Source: a plasmid. From it: a stretch of DNA of 11,304 nt. Below, in pieces: positions 2,071 to 11,303 of this stretch (positions within the stretch are counted from its first letter, which is position 1; every line of letters begins with the position of its first letter). The translations under genes were made by a program, and so were the position numbers. The stretch lies in assembly GCF_057098645.1 (NCBI RefSeq), contig NZ_JBXSPU010000004.1. One strand, written 5' to 3'. The notes below the pieces were generated by a model, which saw only the letters and a program-made list of their open reading frames with translations, had not been told where the DNA came from and did no database searches.

Positions 2071-2279
2071 TAGCAAATGCCTGAATAATTTTCGTAGTTT
2101 TGATATACCCATCGTTGCAACCGCAACGGGATGAATTTGCCGCAGTTGTGCGCGAAAAACAATCCTGATTCCGGGACAGGATGTGTAATCGTATAACCGC
2201 GCACGCACGGCTATGCGATTACCACCTGGTCAGGGCTTTGCCCCGACACCCTCGACACCGTTCCCGCGATACGATAGAA

Positions 2280-2483
2280 GGGGTTCTAAGCCGGAAACCC
2301 AGAAAATTCCGTCACCAAAGCTAGTAATCGACAGATTTGCATGACGTTGAATAGGTGACGGGTTATGTGACGATATTTGGTGTCGAAATCGTTGTTTCAG
2401 TGACAGTCACTCAATCGATCGTTTGTGTGACACTCCCGTAAAAACTTGTCGCAGAAAAATCCAGGTTTCCGGCCGGGAACCCC
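2280..2483. mobile_element. 204-bp miniature element with Tn3-family-like terminal inverted repeats and 5-bp target duplication (TIME-like, non-autonomous)
   Basis: Left end GGGGTTCTAAGCCGGAAACCCAGAAAATTCCG; right end read inward GGGGTTCCCGGCCGGAAACCTGGATTTTTCTGCG. Both start GGGGTTC like the transposon IRs at 7516 and 11303. Flanked by identical TAGAA at 2275-2279 and 2484-2488. No ORF inside. Confidence 0.6.
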
Positions 2484-2571
2484 TAGAACATCAGGGCGCG
2501 TTTCCGGGTAAACGCATGTTAATGACCGGGAATTCATTGATCAGGGACCGGAGACGCGCTACAAAACTCCT

Positions 2572-4825: not shown

Positions 4826-4873
4826 TATATTGTTTTTAATTTATTGTTTTAATTATCAAAGAGGAATTTCTTT

Positions 4874-6346
4874 ATGGATAAAGTCACTGATAATTCTCCA
4901 GATGTGGAGAGCACAGAATCTACTGAGGGGTCATTCCCAACCGTTGGGGTTGATACTGGCGATACGATTACAGCGACGCTTGCAACTGGAACTGAAAATG
5001 TTGGTGGAGGCGGTGGAGCATTTGGTGGGGCCAGTGAAAGTTCTGCTGCGATACATGCAACCGCTAAATGGTCTACCGCGCAGTTGAAAAAACATCAGGC
5101 TGAACAGGCTGCCCGTGCTGCTGCGGCTGAGGCAGCATTGGCAAAAGCGAAATCTCAGCGTGATGCCCTGACTCAACGTCTCAAAGATATTGTTAATGAC
5201 GCTTTACGTGCTAATGCCGCCCGTAGTCCATCAGTAACTGACCTTGCTCATGCCAATAATATGGCAATGCAGGCAGAGGCTGAGCGTTTGCGCCTTGCGA
5301 AGGCAGAGCAAAAAGCCCGTGAAGAAGCTGAAGCAGCAGAAAAAGCGCTCCGGGAAGCAGAACGCCAACGTGATGAGATTGCCCGCCAACAGGCTGAAAC
5401 CGAGCATTTGTTAGCTATGGCTGAGGCTGCTGAGGCTGAAAAAAATCGACAGGATTCTCTTGATGAAGAGCATCGGGCTGTGGAAGTGGCGGAGAAGAAT
5501 CTGGCTGAGGCTAAAGCTGAACTGGCGAAGGCTGAAAGCGATGTACAGAGTAAGCAAGCGATTGTTTCCAGAGTTGCAGGGGAGCTTGAAAACGCTCAAA
5601 AAAGTGTTGATGTGAAGGTTACCGGATTTCCTGGATGGCGTGATGTTCAGAAAAAACTAGAGAGACAATTGCAGGATAAGAAGAATGAATATTCGTCAGT
5701 GACAAATGCTCTTAATTCTGCTGTTAGCATTAGAGATGCTAAAAAAACAGAAGTTCAGAATGCTGAGACAAAATTAAAAGAAGCTCAGGATGCGCTTGAG
5801 AAGAGTCAGGTAAAAGATTCTGTTGATACTATGGTTGGGTTTTATCAATATATAACCGAACAATATGGAGAAAAATACGCAAGAATTGCTCAGGATTTAG
5901 CGGAAAAGTCTAAAGGAAAGAAAATTAAAGGTGTTGATGAAGCTTTAGCTGCATTTGAACAGTATAAAAATGTACTGGATAAGAAATTCAGTAAGGTTGA
6001 TAGGGATGCTATTTTTAATTCTTTAGAGTCTGTTAATTATGATGAGTTATCTAAGAATTTAACGAAGATATCAAAGTCGCTTAAAATCACTAGTCGAGTA
6101 TCTTTTCTATATGATGTTGGTTCTGATTTTAAAAATGCAATAGAAACTGGTAACTGGCGTCCTTTATTTGTCACGCTGGAGAAAAGTGCGGTAGATGTAG
6201 GTGTTGCAAAAATTGTGGCATTAATGTTTAGTTTTATTGTCGGCGTGCCTCTTGGTTTCTGGGGGATTGCTATTATCACAGGTATTGTTTCTTCTTACAT
6301 AGGGGATGATGAGTTGAACAAGCTTAATGAATTGCTAGGTATTTAA
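4874..6346 (+). CDS. cta: Pore-forming colicin of the E1 family, colicin 10-like (490 aa)
   Basis: Gly-rich N-terminal region, then [20 protein letters not shown]...[13 protein letters not shown]...LAHANN...ERLRLAKAE matching colicin E1 as I recall it. C-terminal channel domain ends [21 protein letters not shown]...LGI (E1: GIWGIAIVTGILCSYI...EVLGI). The length and the TonB-box-like DTITATL at residues 30-36 fit colicin 10; the symbol is tentative. Confidence 0.9.
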
Positions 6347-6848: not shown

Positions 6849-6957
6849 GTAAACGAAAAAACCGCCTGGGGAGGCGGTTTAGTCAAAGGTTAAGTCAGTT
6901 GGGGAACAGCTTAACCGGGTAACTGGCTTCAGCAGAGCGCAGATACCAAAAACTTGT
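6849..6957 (-). ncRNA. RNA I antisense copy-number regulator
   Basis: Antisense to the 5' ~110 nt of RNA II; its 5' end corresponds to the complement of cagataccaaaaacttgt (pBR322 RNA I begins ACAGTATTTGGTATCTG); three-stem-loop region. Ends approximate. Confidence 0.65.
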
Positions 6958-7478
6958 CCTTCTAGTGTAGTCAAAATCAGGCTGATACTTCAAGAACTCT
7001 GTTACTAACTTATAAATCTCGCTCTGCTAACCCGGTTACCAATGGCTGCTGCCAGTGGCGTTAAGTCGTGTCCTTTCCGGGTTGGACCCAAGAGAACAGT
7101 TACCGGAGAAGGCGCAGCAGTCGGGCTGAACGGGGGGTTCCTGCATACAGCCCGGCCCGGAGCGAACTGCCTAAGTCGCCCCGAGATACCAGAAGACGTG
7201 AGCTATGAGAAAGCGCCACGTGTCCCGCAAGGGAGAAAGGCGGAAAAGGTATCCGGCAATCGATATGGCGGGAACGTGGGGGCGCAGGAGGGAGCGATTC
7301 ACCGGAAACGGTGATGATCTTTAAGCCACGTCGGGTTTCGCCACCGCTGGCGGATTTCATGGTTGAGTCGGAAGACTCCCACAGATGCACCTAAAAAGTG
7401 TCTGTTTTGTGAAGTCCGTCAGGGGGGCGGAGCCTATGGAAAAAGCGCCTCCGGCGCGGCCTTTCGGGGTTTTCGTTT
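6849..7478 (+). ncRNA. RNA II primer precursor through the replication origin of a ColE1-type replicon
   Basis: Collinear with pBR322 RNA II/ori as recalled (ggtaactggcttcagcagagcgcagatacc..., gctatgagaaagcgccacg..., gtcaggggggcggagcctatggaaaaa..., ctcacatgttctttcc), but with many substitutions and an extra segment near 7330-7410. Ends approximate. Confidence 0.7.
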
Positions 7479-7515
7479 CTTGCTCACATGTTCTTTCCGG
7501 CGTTATCCCCTGATT

Positions 7516-7553
7516 GGGGTTCCGTGGGAATTTCTGCGATAACACCCGCTAAG
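7516..7553 (+). repeat. Left 38-bp terminal inverted repeat (IRL)
   Basis: GGGGTTCCGTGGGAATTTCTGCGATAACACCCGCTAAG. Confidence 0.85.
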
Positions 7554-7699
7554 CGATTCCTCCCTGACGGAAATCACTTGTTTTCCGTCAGGTCCTGCAG
7601 TTGAAGAAAATTGAATCCATAAATCTGTGATTTTTTGCGTGACAAACCCTGTCGGAATGAGAAACTGTACGGAAACTTCAATTTTAAGGTTTGTCGTAC
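7554..7699 (+). promoter_or_regulatory. res site (resolvase binding subsites) and tnpR promoter region
   Basis: 30-bp palindrome cctgacggaaa-tcacttgt-tttccgtcagg at 7563-7592, plus further TGTCGGAA / TGTACGGAA / TGTCGTACA half-sites at 7648-7700, between IRL and tnpR. Confidence 0.55.
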
Positions 7700-8323
7700 A
7701 TGTTGATTGGTTATATGCGGGTATCAAGCAATGATGAACGTCAGTCAGTTTCTTTGCAGCGTGATGCGTTGATTGCTGCTGGAGTGGATCCCCGGCATTT
7801 ACATCAGGATCATGCTTCAGGTGCTCGTGATAATCGCCCGGGACTTAAGTCCTGTCTCGCTGAACTTCGCGAAGGTGATGTACTGATAGTCTGGAAACTG
7901 GATCGACTTGGTCGTTCACTCTCACATTTGCTCCGAATTATTGAAGACCTGAAAATTCGTGGTATTGCTTTCCGATCATTGACTGAATCTATTGATACAA
8001 CAACGCCACACGGCTCGTTCCTCTTTAACCTTTTTGGCACGCTCGCGGAGTACGAAAGAACACTTATCACAGAACGCGTTAATGCTGGTCTGGCTGCTGC
8101 TCTCCGGCGGGGGAGAAAAGGCGGAAGGCCACCGGCGATAGATGCTGAAAAGGTTGATCAAATCCTCGCAGCTCTGGAAGGAGGTGCCAGTAAAGCGTCA
8201 GTATGTCGCGCATTCAGTGTGCCACGCTCAACGCTCACCGATACTCTACGACGAATTGGCTGGGCCGGACCTGGGGGGCGTAATCTGACAACGGATCAGA
8301 GCAATGTCATTTCTCGACTCTAA
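7700..8323 (+). CDS. tnpR: Serine recombinase (resolvase), Hin/Gin invertase-like
   Basis: MLIGYMRVSSNDERQ...RPGLK...GDVLIVWKLDRLGRS...GIAFRSLTESIDTTTP...GRKGGRPPA parallels Gin (MLIGYVRVSTNDQ...GDTLVVWKLDRLGRSM...GINFRSLTDSIDTSSP...GRIGGRPPK) as recalled. I place the start at ATG 7700 (AAGG about 10 nt upstream); the ORF track starts at an upstream TTG, 7691. Confidence 0.85.
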   Translation: MLIGYMRVSSNDERQSVSLQRDALIAAGVDPRHLHQDHASGARDNRPGLKSCLAELREGDVLIVWKLDRLGRSLSHLLRIIEDLKIRGIAFRSLTESIDTTTPHGSFLFNLFGTLAEYERTLITERVNAGLAAALRRGRKGGRPPAIDAEKVDQILAALEGGASKASVCRAFSVPRSTLTDTLRRIGWAGPGGRNLTTDQSNVISRL

Positions 8324-11270
8324 ATCGTACGATACGCTTTTTGGATTACCTGAACTTTATGAGGATGCACTTCCCCGGTTTTCGCTCTCCTGCGAGGATA
8401 TTGCATTCGCCAGAACTCATCGTCGATCTCATAACCGTCTGGGTTTTGCCATTCAGCTTGCACTTGTCCGTGATCTCGGTCGTACACTGCGTGCAGGAGA
8501 GATTCCCCCGGAGGCTGTTATCACCGTTGTTGCGGAACAACTGGATATTGACCCTGCTGTTTTTACACTTTACGCACAACGTGAGGAAACCCGCCGGGAA
8601 CATGCCCGCGAAATAGTTTCGGCTTTGGAGCTTCGTTCCGTCCGGAGTAGCGATTACAGAATGCTCATTATCGCGGCTACACGCGAAGCAGCAACCACCG
8701 AAAAAGGACTGCCGATCACCAGAGCAGTTATCAATAAGCTGAAGGACCAGAAGTTACTTGCCCCTGCTCCGGCACAACTCATCCGTCTGGCAATGGCGGG
8801 CCGGGCGGCTGCCCGTCGCCTTTCTTATCGGGAACTCATCAGGGATCTGAAACCTTCATCCATTAGCGCTCTCGAGCAGTTGCTTACCGAACGAGTCGGA
8901 GAAAAGAGCATTTTAGGCTGGATAGCTGAAGCGCCGGAAGGCGTGAAACTCAAGAATCTTAAGGGGTTAATTGCCAGGCTGGAGGTATTACGAACAGCGG
9001 CAATCTCCGATGAGCAACGTAAACGGATTCATGTAAACCGTTACGGTATTATTGCCCGGGATTCTCGCGTTTTACATGCGCGTGAAATACAACGAATGGC
9101 ATCCGAACGCTGTCATGCCACGCTGGTAGCCTTTGTTATTGAAAAGCAGGCAGCAATTACAGATCTGGCAATTGATATGTTCTGCAAATTGATTGGCAGC
9201 ACGAGGCGCAGAGCAGAGATAAGCCAGAAAGAGCGTCGTCTGAAAGCCGCTGAAGTACTTGAAGTCGTAGCTCAGGATCATATTAAGTTGGGACGGGCTC
9301 TCCTGGCAGCACGTGACGGTAATACTGATATTGAATCTGTAATAACAGCATCACTCGGCTGGGAAGGTTTGATTGCCAGTATGGAGGCTGCAGCTTCGGT
9401 GGCATCTTCCCATCACTGTTCTGAACTGGATGAACTTATCGGACGACAAAAATCATTACGTAAGCTTGGACGACTCATTTTCAGCGCTTTTTCTTTCAGA
9501 GCTTTTCGCCCGGATGATAGCGTTTTGTTGGCGATTGGGTATTTGCAGGCGTTCTATCATGGCCGAAAATTACCCAAACAAATTCCGCTCGATTTTATGT
9601 CCCATAAATGGCGACGTCGTGTCATCCATGGAGAAAATACCGATCTGCAGGCGTGGGAAGTCGCCGTATTCGTTCATTTGCGGGAACGCCTGAAAACAGG
9701 TGACATATGGGTTGATGGTAGTCGGGCCTGGCGTAGTTTTGAGGACTACCTTCTTCCTCACCATGTTTTCGGGCAGATGCGGGCAGAATCCCGGCTGGGA
9801 CTTGCCATTCCGGACAACTTTGCTGAATGGCGGGCTGAGCGAACCACCACACTCAACGCAAAACTGAAAGCGCTGGCAAAAGCTGCTTCGGAGAATGCCA
9901 TACCCGATGCAGAACTTTCCAGCAGAGGGTTGTCTGTGTCTCCGATTCGCGAAGAAGAGAGCGACAAAATTAAGGCTCTCAGCCGTAAACTCTACATGCT
10001 GGTACCACGCATCAGAATTACCAGTTTGCTGGCAGAAGTTCATAGCTGGACCAGTTTTCTTGATTGTTTCACCCATTATCGCACCGGGGAACAGGCGGAA
10101 GATGAAGCTGCACTTATGGCTGCGATCCTTGCCGATGCGACGAATGCGGGAGCAGAACGGATGGCGCAGAGTTCCCGGGGTGTCACCATTCACCAGATGA
10201 TGGTAATGATGGATCGTCATTTACGCACTGAAACCTATGCGTCTGCCACATCAGTTCTGGTCGATGCGCAACAGGAACATCCTTTTGCTGCTATATGGGG
10301 GGATGGGCATGTGTCATCCTCGGACGGGCAGTTTTTTCCTGCGGGTGGACGAGGAGAAGCCAGCCTCGAATATAACGCCAAATACGGCAAACGACCTGGC
10401 GCGTCGATTTATGGTTTTTTATCGAACCGTTTTGCATCCTTTTTTTCCAGAATGATTCAGGCCTCTGAAAGCGAGGCTCCCTACGTACTTGACGGCTTAC
10501 TTCATAACGAAAGTTCTGTGGTAATTCATGAGCATGCCACCGATACAGCCGGTGCGACTGAAACAACATTTTCAATGTTTCACTCTTTTGGTTACAGACT
10601 CATACCCCGTATTCGCAACCTCGGCAGTCGCAGGTTGTACGTTATTTCCCCCTCAGAGGAATATAAACCACTTGATGCCCTGATCGCCGGAAAGGCCAAA
10701 ATGGAAGTAATAGAACAGCACTGGGATGAAGTTCTGCGGCTTAAGGCCTCGATCGGCGCTGGTCTGGTACCACCATCGGTAATACTGAAAAAGCTGGCAG
10801 CATCTCCGAGACAAAACAGGCTCAATCTGGCCCTGCGTGAAATGGGACGTATTGAACGCTCAATTTTTATCTGTGACTGGTTGCTTGACACTCGGTTACG
10901 TCGCAGATCACACGCAATCCTCAACAAAGGCGAAAGCCGCCATGCACTTGCCCGCGCTATTTTTCTTCACCAACTGGGCGAATTCCGGAACAGGGCTGCC
11001 GAGACAATGGCTCACAGGGCATCGGGCCTCAACCTTGTTGTTAATGCAATAATTCTGTGGAACACGGTCTATCTCAGTCGGGCTGTTGATTACATTCGCA
11101 GCCAGGGGATCATTATACCGGAAGAGCTCTTGTCCAGTGTATCACCACTACCATGGGGTCATATCTCGCTCACTGGAGATTACCTGTGGAACGAAATTGA
11201 CCATCCCCTTGAACGATACAGGCCACTTCGTACTAATCGCTTCAATCCAAAGAACTTCACTTTTCCTTAG
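8304..11270 (+). CDS. tnpA: Tn3-family DDE transposase (988 aa)
   Basis: HNRLGFAIQLALVRDLG, NKGESRHALARAIFLHQLGEFRNR and NAIILWNTVYLSRAVDYIRSQG mirror Tn3 TnpA motifs (HNRLGIALQIGCVRFLG, NRGESRHAVARAICHGQKGEIRKR, NAVVLWNTIYMQAALDHLRAQG). Overlaps the tnpR 3' end by 20 nt. Confidence 0.93.
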   Translation: MSFLDSKSYDTLFGLPELYEDALPRFSLSCEDIAFARTHRRSHNRLGFAIQLALVRDLGRTLRAGEIPPEAVITVVAEQLDIDPAVFTLYAQREETRREHAREIVSALELRSVRSSDYRMLIIAATREAATTEKGLPITRAVINKLKDQKLLAPAPAQLIRLAMAGRAAARRLSYRELIRDLKPSSISALEQLLTERVGEKSILGWIAEAPEGVKLKNLKGLIARLEVLRTAAISDEQRKRIHVNRYGIIARDSRVLHAREIQRMASERCHATLVAFVIEKQAAITDLAIDMFCKLIGSTRRRAEISQKERRLKAAEVLEVVAQDHIKLGRALLAARDGNTDIESVITASLGWEGLIASMEAAASVASSHHCSELDELIGRQKSLRKLGRLIFSAFSFRAFRPDDSVLLAIGYLQAFYHGRKLPKQIPLDFMSHKWRRRVIHGENTDLQAWEVAVFVHLRERLKTGDIWVDGSRAWRSFEDYLLPHHVFGQMRAESRLGLAIPDNFAEWRAERTTTLNAKLKALAKAASENAIPDAELSSRGLSVSPIREEESDKIKALSRKLYMLVPRIRITSLLAEVHSWTSFLDCFTHYRTGEQAEDEAALMAAILADATNAGAERMAQSSRGVTIHQMMVMMDRHLRTETYASATSVLVDAQQEHPFAAIWGDGHVSSSDGQFFPAGGRGEASLEYNAKYGKRPGASIYGFLSNRFASFFSRMIQASESEAPYVLDGLLHNESSVVIHEHATDTAGATETTFSMFHSFGYRLIPRIRNLGSRRLYVISPSEEYKPLDALIAGKAKMEVIEQHWDEVLRLKASIGAGLVPPSVILKKLAASPRQNRLNLALREMGRIERSIFICDWLLDTRLRRRSHAILNKGESRHALARAIFLHQLGEFRNRAAETMAHRASGLNLVVNAIILWNTVYLSRAVDYIRSQGIIIPEELLSSVSPLPWGHISLTGDYLWNEIDHPLERYRPLRTNRFNPKNFTFP

Positions 11271-11303
11271 CGTGTGTTATCGCAGAAATGCCCACGGAAC
11301 CCC
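11266..11303 (-). repeat. Right 38-bp terminal inverted repeat (IRR)
   Basis: Reverse complement reads GGGGTTCCGTGGGCATTTCTGCGATAACACACGCTAAG; differs from IRL at positions 14 and 31. Confidence 0.85.

Follow-up and report, generated by a model that had tools for sequence, protein, structure and literature searches.

The 11,304-nucleotide window, the whole stretch of DNA analysed here, represents an entire 11.3-kb colicin plasmid of the ColE1 type (RNAI at 6853-6954 is its sole Rfam match), and it carries a 204-bp element whose sequence features identify it as a Tn3-derived inverted-repeat miniature element (TIME) bearing a res site. The element, which occupies positions 2280-2483, opening with GGGGTTCTAAGCC and closing with GGCCGGGAACCCC (Table 1), is geneless, is bounded by inverted repeats of about 38 bp homologous to those of the Tn3 family, is flanked by a 5-bp duplication and is polymorphic for presence and absence among plasmids. 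Every cis-acting part of a Tn3-family transposon is kept in it, and none of the genes. The class itself is already known but this member is new, an uncatalogued and unnamed enterobacterial TIME: a literature search found no published name for the 204-bp element or for the larger transposon resident on the same plasmid, and copies of the element are unannotated or labelled hypothetical protein in every record seen. The overall explanation that we favour, and consider very probably correct, is that a res-bearing TIME with ISPsy30-type ends transposed into a ColK-type plasmid.

Table 1 Coordinates of the 204-bp element, its parts and the co-resident transposon in the window
Feature	Position	Strand	Remark
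Target-site duplication, left copy TAGAA	2275..2279	.	single TAGAA in sister plasmids
IRL, ISPsy30 type, GGGGTTCTAAGCCGGAAACCCAGAAAATTCCGTCACCA	2280..2317	+	35/38 to ISPsy30 IR
Putative res region, element positions 31-153	2310..2432	+	overlaps inner end of IRL; ends where tnpR would start
Res block GGTGACGGGTTATGTGAC with two direct GTGAC half-site-like motifs	2354..2371	+	nearly invariant in aligned res relatives
28-bp palindrome AGTCAC-N16-GTGACA, consensus TGTCACATAATCGAACGTATATGTGACA	2405..2432	+	most conserved block of the res alignment
Putative tnpA 3' remnant CTCCCGTAAAAAC	2433..2445	+	resembles last tnpA codons beside the IR in L024 and L026
IRR, GGGGTTCCCGGCCGGAAACCTGGATTTTTCTGCGACAA read inward	2446..2483	-	26/38 to IRL
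Target-site duplication, right copy TAGAA	2484..2488	.	single TAGAA in sister plasmids
Co-resident Tn3-family transposon, 3788 bp	7516..11303	+	context, outside the 204-bp element
Resident transposon IRL	7516-7553
Resident transposon res	~7554-7699
Resident transposon tnpR	7700-8323
Resident transposon tnpA	8304-11270
Resident transposon IRR	11266-11303

The insertion is real and recent and occurred by transposition. When the first 38 nt of the element are compared with the reverse complement of its last 38, 26 positions agree (binomial P = 2.3e-8), the top value among equally spaced pairs in the window (runner-up 20/38, mean 9.6), and identical 5-mers at the spacing of the element occur at only 6 of 11,090 window positions. 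The description given in the first-pass annotation, a 204-bp element with Tn3-type ends and a perfect TAGAA duplication, thus stands at its coordinates, with a repeat similarity well above background. The same annotation had predicted that related plasmids would carry the empty site, and a query made of the left flank, one TAGAA and the right flank, searched in PLSDB, is indeed present uninterrupted in at least 29 other plasmids at 96.5-99.6% identity; in all, at least 32 sister colicin plasmids have the unbroken site with one TAGAA. In one of these sister plasmids, NZ_CP053237.1, the flanks overlap by exactly one TAGAA (...cgcgatacgaTAGAAcatcagggcgcg...). Only NZ_CP062882.1, the window's own record, splits the query into two pieces; it is about 99.95% identical to the window and comes from Escherichia coli O157:H16 strain Res13-Lact-PEA12-26, isolated from a pig in Quebec (hereafter the host strain). 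Because the TAGAA is duplicated and the empty site exists, the element must have entered this site by transposition, as expected of a non-autonomous miniature member of the Tn3 family. The small size of the 204 bp and the absence of annotation are all that speaks for a chance palindrome or an ordinary, immobile feature of the ColE1-type backbone. Such a reading has practically no chance of being right and is refuted by the repeat statistics (P = 2.3e-8) together with the duplication, by sister plasmids in which the element is missing at exactly this point, and by the occurrence of the element in unrelated plasmid contexts. Neither a ColE1 cer site near the insertion nor a sigma-70-like promoter or terminator within 2150-2650 was found.

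Comparison of the termini with Tn3-family inverted repeats, a check proposed in the first-pass annotation, places the element's ends in the ISPsy30-type group. Specifically, IRL agrees at 35 of 38 positions with the repeat of ISPsy30 from a Pseudomonas syringae plasmid and at 30-31 of 38 with the repeats of full-length transposons in Providencia (L024, 1869-7311; 5.4 kb, duplication TTCTT) and in E. coli (L026, 3944-8059; 4.1 kb, duplication GATCA); a third transposon of ISPsy30-like type, about 5.7 kb long, lies on a plasmid of E. coli from pig (L030). IRR is more divergent, with only 23-27/38 against the full-length transposons found, the repeats of the Providencia transposon scoring 26-27/38. 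Most differences between IRL and IRR fall at positions 21-27, where IRR resembles the Providencia repeat variant, and the likeness of 26/38 between the two ends is low for a Tn3-family pair. It had also been claimed that the right terminus resembles the repeat of the transposon resident in the window. This is true of the first 8 nt, beyond which the agreement consists of a 9-mer, TTTCTGCGA, displaced 11 nt out of register; the ungapped comparison gives 15/38, and positions 13-38, with 6/26, are at chance level. For IRL the corresponding value is 16/38, and similarity to the resident repeat stops after 7 nt. That the element is a miniature derivative of the resident transposon was likewise considered and rejected, given repeats matching at 15-16/38 and alignments of only 11-26 nt in the interior. 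The Providencia transposon, on plasmid NZ_CP096295.1, carries as cargo a TIR-domain protein and a caspase-family protein, a pair that looks like a transposon-borne anti-phage defence module.

The interior of the element points to a complete res region. Aligned directly with the res region of ISPsy30 and with the IRL-res segment of the resident transposon, it gives only matches of 11-26 nt; the res relationship was found through tnpR-linked relatives, starting from an Edwardsiella copy. The most informative relative, L014 (E. coli CP057809.1, 5593-6413), is an 821-bp IR-res-tnpR-IR unit with an intact tnpR, and its plasmid has the 204-bp element too. Positions 1-127 of the window element are identical in L014, homology continues to position 153, and the ATG of tnpR follows 6-8 nt beyond. 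In L012, from an Edwardsiella tarda plasmid (1501-2457), IRL plus 115 bp is homologous and is followed by a decayed tnpR and a second IR, and L015 has an IRL-res-tnpR arrangement like that of L014 and L012. Since homology in L014 and L012 runs up to the start of tnpR, element positions 31-153 would represent the res region upstream of that gene. They align with the DNA directly upstream of tnpR or tniR in six elements, sharing, in order, TGTCAC, ATGACGGGTTAWGTGAC and the 28-bp palindrome TGTCAC-N16-GTGACA, and the same blocks lie upstream of a Tn5053-type tniR (in the tniQ-tniR gap), of an Aeromonas plasmid resolvase gene beside parA and of a Providencia Tn3-family tnpR. The L014 TnpR is 83% identical to the Tn5053-type TniR, and tniABQ-res-tniR is a documented organisation (PMC7765201). 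The element holds 6 GTGAC/GTCAC motifs in 204 nt where 0.36 would be expected (P = 1.4e-6), and the alignment identifies these motifs as conserved resolvase half-sites. An earlier suggestion that the GTGAC-rich interior might be a res-like cargo is therefore borne out by its homology to DNA directly upstream of tnpR and tniR.

Within this region the palindrome at 2405-2432 is a candidate resolvase dimer site and possibly the crossover site. Two mosaic copies, L014 and L021 (n = 2), switch parent within it, which gives a hint that crossing-over takes place there. Seven copies that lack tnpR, phylogenetically related and 74-100% identical, were compared column by column: 9 of 49 columns vary where the distant tnpR-linked res sequences are invariant, against 39 of 74 elsewhere (Fisher P = 1.4e-4), a pattern that fits continued selection on res in the absence of a linked tnpR. 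We infer that the site works with the TnpR of the related 0.8-kb IR-res-tnpR-IR elements. The resident transposon differs in this respect, as its res half-sites are of the TGACGGAAA type and those of the element of the TGTCAC type, and identity between its TnpR and that of L014 is 52%. Between res and IRR lie 13 nt that would be the 3' end of a lost tnpA, the tnpA genes of L024 and L026 ending beside the IR in ...ATAAAACTAGGATAACGG.... The element has no coding capacity, with stops in all six frames.

Taken together, these features suggest a simple path of origin. The parent would have been a co-linear IRL-res-tnpR-tnpA-IRR transposon ending in ...CCCGTAAAAACTTGTCGCAG-IRR, from which an internal deletion of tnpR-tnpA left 204 bp consisting of IRL, the complete res, about 13 bp of the tnpA 3' end and IRR. 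An exact co-linear parent was not found. Entry into the ColK-type plasmid would have proceeded by transposase-mediated, most probably replicative, transposition with duplication of TAGAA, and the cointegrate so formed could then have been resolved either by a trans-acting resolvase at res or by RecA.

Two candidate sources of the transposase can be weighed, and the end sequences and the distribution data pull in opposite directions. We consider it probable, with some reserve, that the helper is a TnpA of the ISPsy30-like clade found on plasmids of E. coli and other enterobacteria. Of 5426 E. coli genomes, 342 contain ISPsy30-like tnpA DNA, which is also found on many enterobacterial plasmids. 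The other candidate, proposed in the first-pass annotation, is the TnpA (988 aa, NF033527) of the co-resident transposon, which would have to act on the element despite dissimilar repeats. This transposon is demonstrably active, occupying three sites in ColK backbones with a duplication at each, and it is otherwise rare, being found over at least 80% of its length in 33 of 5426 E. coli genomes and 56 of 20,395 records. Yet in 12 of the 30 PLSDB records of the element clade with at least 98.5% identity, the transposon, or a large part of it, lies on the same replicon. It is also present in all three RefSeq genomes seen with 2-4 copies of the element (Res13, ES5 and 1604D011). In the host strain it sits on the chromosome and five plasmids, and the element is on three plasmids, two of the three copies looking lineage-specific. 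Megablast found no tnpA of the L026, L030 or L024 type on the chromosome and four plasmids of this strain (a further replicon, NZ_CP062879, gave an ambiguous result). In NZ_CP062880.1, local tblastn detected nothing besides the resident TnpA and, next to a solo IR, a fossil consisting of 31 codons of an L026-type tnpA. Both types of end start with GGGGTTC(C), and a gapped alignment of IRR with the resident repeat nominally beats shuffled sequences (P = 0.0085).

Against this association stands the specificity of the ends. Tn3-family transposases bind the inner part of their ends (positions 13-38) and generally do not act on one another's ends even at about 70% end identity, as with Tn3 and gamma-delta or Tn21 and Tn1721. 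Between element and resident transposon the repeats agree at only 15-16/38, with 6-8/26 over positions 13-38, a chance value, and IRL shows no likeness to the resident repeat past its seventh nucleotide; the TnpAs whose ends do match, those of ISPsy30 and of the Providencia transposon, share only about 23-25% identity with the resident TnpA. The association is itself confounded by shared pig-associated IncF lineages and amounts to roughly 5-7 independent cases. The transposon-burst strains Z1323HEC0422 and Z1323HEC0399 are not among the element matches, and in NZ_CP053237.1 the transposon is present and the site of the element is empty. As the ColK plasmid is mobilisable, the insertion could also have occurred in another host. 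Weighing the generally strict end specificity of the family against co-occurrence, we rank the ISPsy30-like helper above the resident one. The proposal of the co-resident TnpA as helper thus keeps its co-occurrence and the negative search for an ISPsy30-type tnpA on five host-strain replicons, loses on the repeats and on transposase identity, and is on balance rather unlikely; whatever weight these two sources leave falls to a parent as yet unseen. The disagreement between end sequences and co-occurrence raises a simple, testable question about the specificity of Tn3-family transposases. Were the resident transposon the helper after all, end recognition in this branch of the family would be far more permissive than the textbook view, and a single small transposon would be responsible for its own bursts and also for spreading a portable res site among plasmids of pig-associated E. 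coli.

Near-identical ColK backbones carry the resident transposon at three separate sites, each flanked by a distinct 5-bp duplication. The window copy lies beside the origin with duplication TGATT (7511-7515, and 11304 plus 1-4), that of NZ_CP062882.1 (1469-5256) lies within the colicin gene with duplication AAAAA, and that of NZ_CP053237.1 (pSCU-106-3; 7116-10894) lies near window position 1918 with duplication ATATA. As the site differs between the window and NZ_CP062882.1, the window plasmid is a sibling with an independent transposon insertion. In some strains the transposon is present on 6-7 replicons.

Several catalogued TIMEs provide points of comparison. TIME244, IMU, MITESen1 and TIME1-4 (Szuplewska 2014, Gomi & Yano 2026) belong to the same class as the element, with which they have in common a length below 300 bp, 38-bp Tn3-family repeats, 5-6-bp duplications and an almost exclusive location on plasmids. 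The element is none of TIME244, IMU and MITESen1, whose published repeats agree with its own at 9-12/38, and it is absent from the 2026 survey of Enterobacteriaceae TIMEs. A res site is also present in IS101 and, putatively, in TIME244 (PMC4133298, PMC13367494). The closest parallel in design is IS101, a 209-bp TIME of pSC101, which resembles the element in size, in having two Tn3-family repeats around a res site and in lacking any gene. IS101 forms cointegrates with the help of the Tn1000 transposase acting in trans, and the resolvases of Tn3 and Tn1000 act on its res (PMC4133298, PMC13367494). The two are nevertheless unrelated in sequence, with repeats agreeing at 11-16/38: IS101 belongs to the Tn3/gamma-delta lineage, whereas the element has ISPsy30-type ends and the TGTCAC half-sites of the clade of TniR and the L014 TnpR.

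By the type of its ends, the nearest relative is MITEPsy2 (228 nt) of P. syringae, whose presumed parent is ISPsy30 and whose repeat agrees at 29/34 (PMC3189936). MITEPsy2 and ISPsy30 differ from the element in their interior: the ISPsy30 res region does not align with it, Pseudomonas plasmids match only element positions 1-37/44, and the hosts of the element are Enterobacterales. An identification of the element with MITEPsy2, which was compared through its published repeat, was rejected on the ground that Pseudomonas plasmids cover its left end only. L014 (821 bp) and L012 (957 bp) have exactly the architecture of TIME-RES, the IR-res-tnpR-IR unit of Pseudomonas (Szuplewska 2014). Their IRL-res portion is common with the 204-bp element, from which tnpR is missing as well, whereas TIME-RES of the Tn5563 type is unrelated in sequence to all three.

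The element is almost exclusively plasmid-borne. At least 80% of its length is found in 158 PLSDB records, mostly from Escherichia, with others from Salmonella, Yersinia and Edwardsiella. Among complete E. coli genomes it occurs in 153 of 5426, the median copy number being one; plasmids account for 164 of its 166 places. Five independent insertions with 5-6-bp duplications were recovered, namely the window copy and those flanked by ATTGA (L003/L016), TATAT (L018), AACAT (L020) and the 6-bp AGGATG (L021).

Conversely, about eight of the thirteen contexts examined show no duplication, and flanks are exchanged in several: L002 and L003 have the right flank in common and not the left, the stretch of NZ_CP062880.1 that is homologous to 118 other genomes begins precisely at the right end of the element, and in ColE9-J (NC_011977.1) a copy of 88.8% identity lies between a truncated lysis gene and the 3' remnant of colicin E5. 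Recombination at the element, or intramolecular replicative transposition, is the probable source of copies with mismatched flanks. Read together with the constrained res motifs and with the mosaics that change parent inside the 28-bp palindrome, these one-sided flanks and junctions would also accord with an element that is mainly a portable recombination site, spread by resolvase or by homologous recombination, its transposition being rare or extinct. This is a minority reading to which we give some credence; the five clean 5-6-bp duplications and the precise empty site could not be produced by recombination, and recombination at the element complements rather than replaces transposition. The transposed, ISPsy30-ended TIME thus remains the preferred account, and its well-conserved res would make it both a substrate for transposition and a portable recombination hot spot. 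Judging by its location and by the title of their report, the 'degenerate transposon-like structure' that Lau & Condie described in ColE9-J (1989, Mol Gen Genet 217:269) is very probably this copy.

TIMEs are easily overlooked, and the 2026 survey describes others that bound and move resistance genes (Gomi & Yano 2026); no pairs of the present element bounding resistance genes were seen here. The element does lie where mosaic plasmids of the colicin and IncF types are joined, such as the E9/E5 junction of ColE9-J, and once given a name and an entry in annotation libraries it would account for several plasmid breakpoints.

Further arrangements were observed around individual copies. An 80-bp right-end fossil, comprising the palindromic res site and a degenerate IRR (L013 2500-2580), is present in about 500 IncF plasmids in PLSDB, where it lies near a colicin E1-type microcin immunity gene and is fixed in a large plasmid group. 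Clusters of Tn3-family ends also occur. A further IR of the family, MITESen1-like, Tn21-like, Tn3-like or ISPsy30-like in type, precedes the IRL of the element at a distance of 0-19 nt in 5 of about 13 contexts. Loci with clustered ends are L002 1258-1500, L004/L019 (37 nt before the element), L008 675-713, L010 1456-1500 and 1692-1944, and L011 ~1420-1481, and none of the clustered-end copies has a duplication. One copy of the element substitutes for the last 13 nt of a MITESen1, and a 253-bp TIME whose repeats are Tn1000-like interrupts the copy in ColV plasmids of APEC at its position 193.

On NZ_CP062880.1, a 77-kb plasmid of the host strain (L028, 12118-20122), the element lies 88 bp upstream of a gene annotated as 'anti-phage transmembrane ATPase', directly downstream of which follows the 3788-bp transposon; the solo IR with its 31 codons of L026-type tnpA is located 1.1 kb further on. 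Neither the element nor the transposon copy has matching flanks there, and a composite unit of the two was rejected for this reason.

The backbone of the window offers two further observations. A second GTGAC/GTCAC cluster, of the form GCGTCAC/GTGACGC, lies at 570-800 and includes, at ~758-790 downstream of rop, the palindrome TGCGTCACTTTG-N9-CAAAGTGACGCA; this cluster may be a backbone protein-binding site unrelated to the element. Nothing in pSCU-106-3, a colicin K plasmid, matches the N-terminal part of the colicin gene (4869-5457), the remainder being 87-97% identical, and the open reading frame encodes 490 aa in the window and 548 aa in pSCU-106-3, which suggests that the window colicin pairs a different receptor/translocation domain with a K-type immunity gene.
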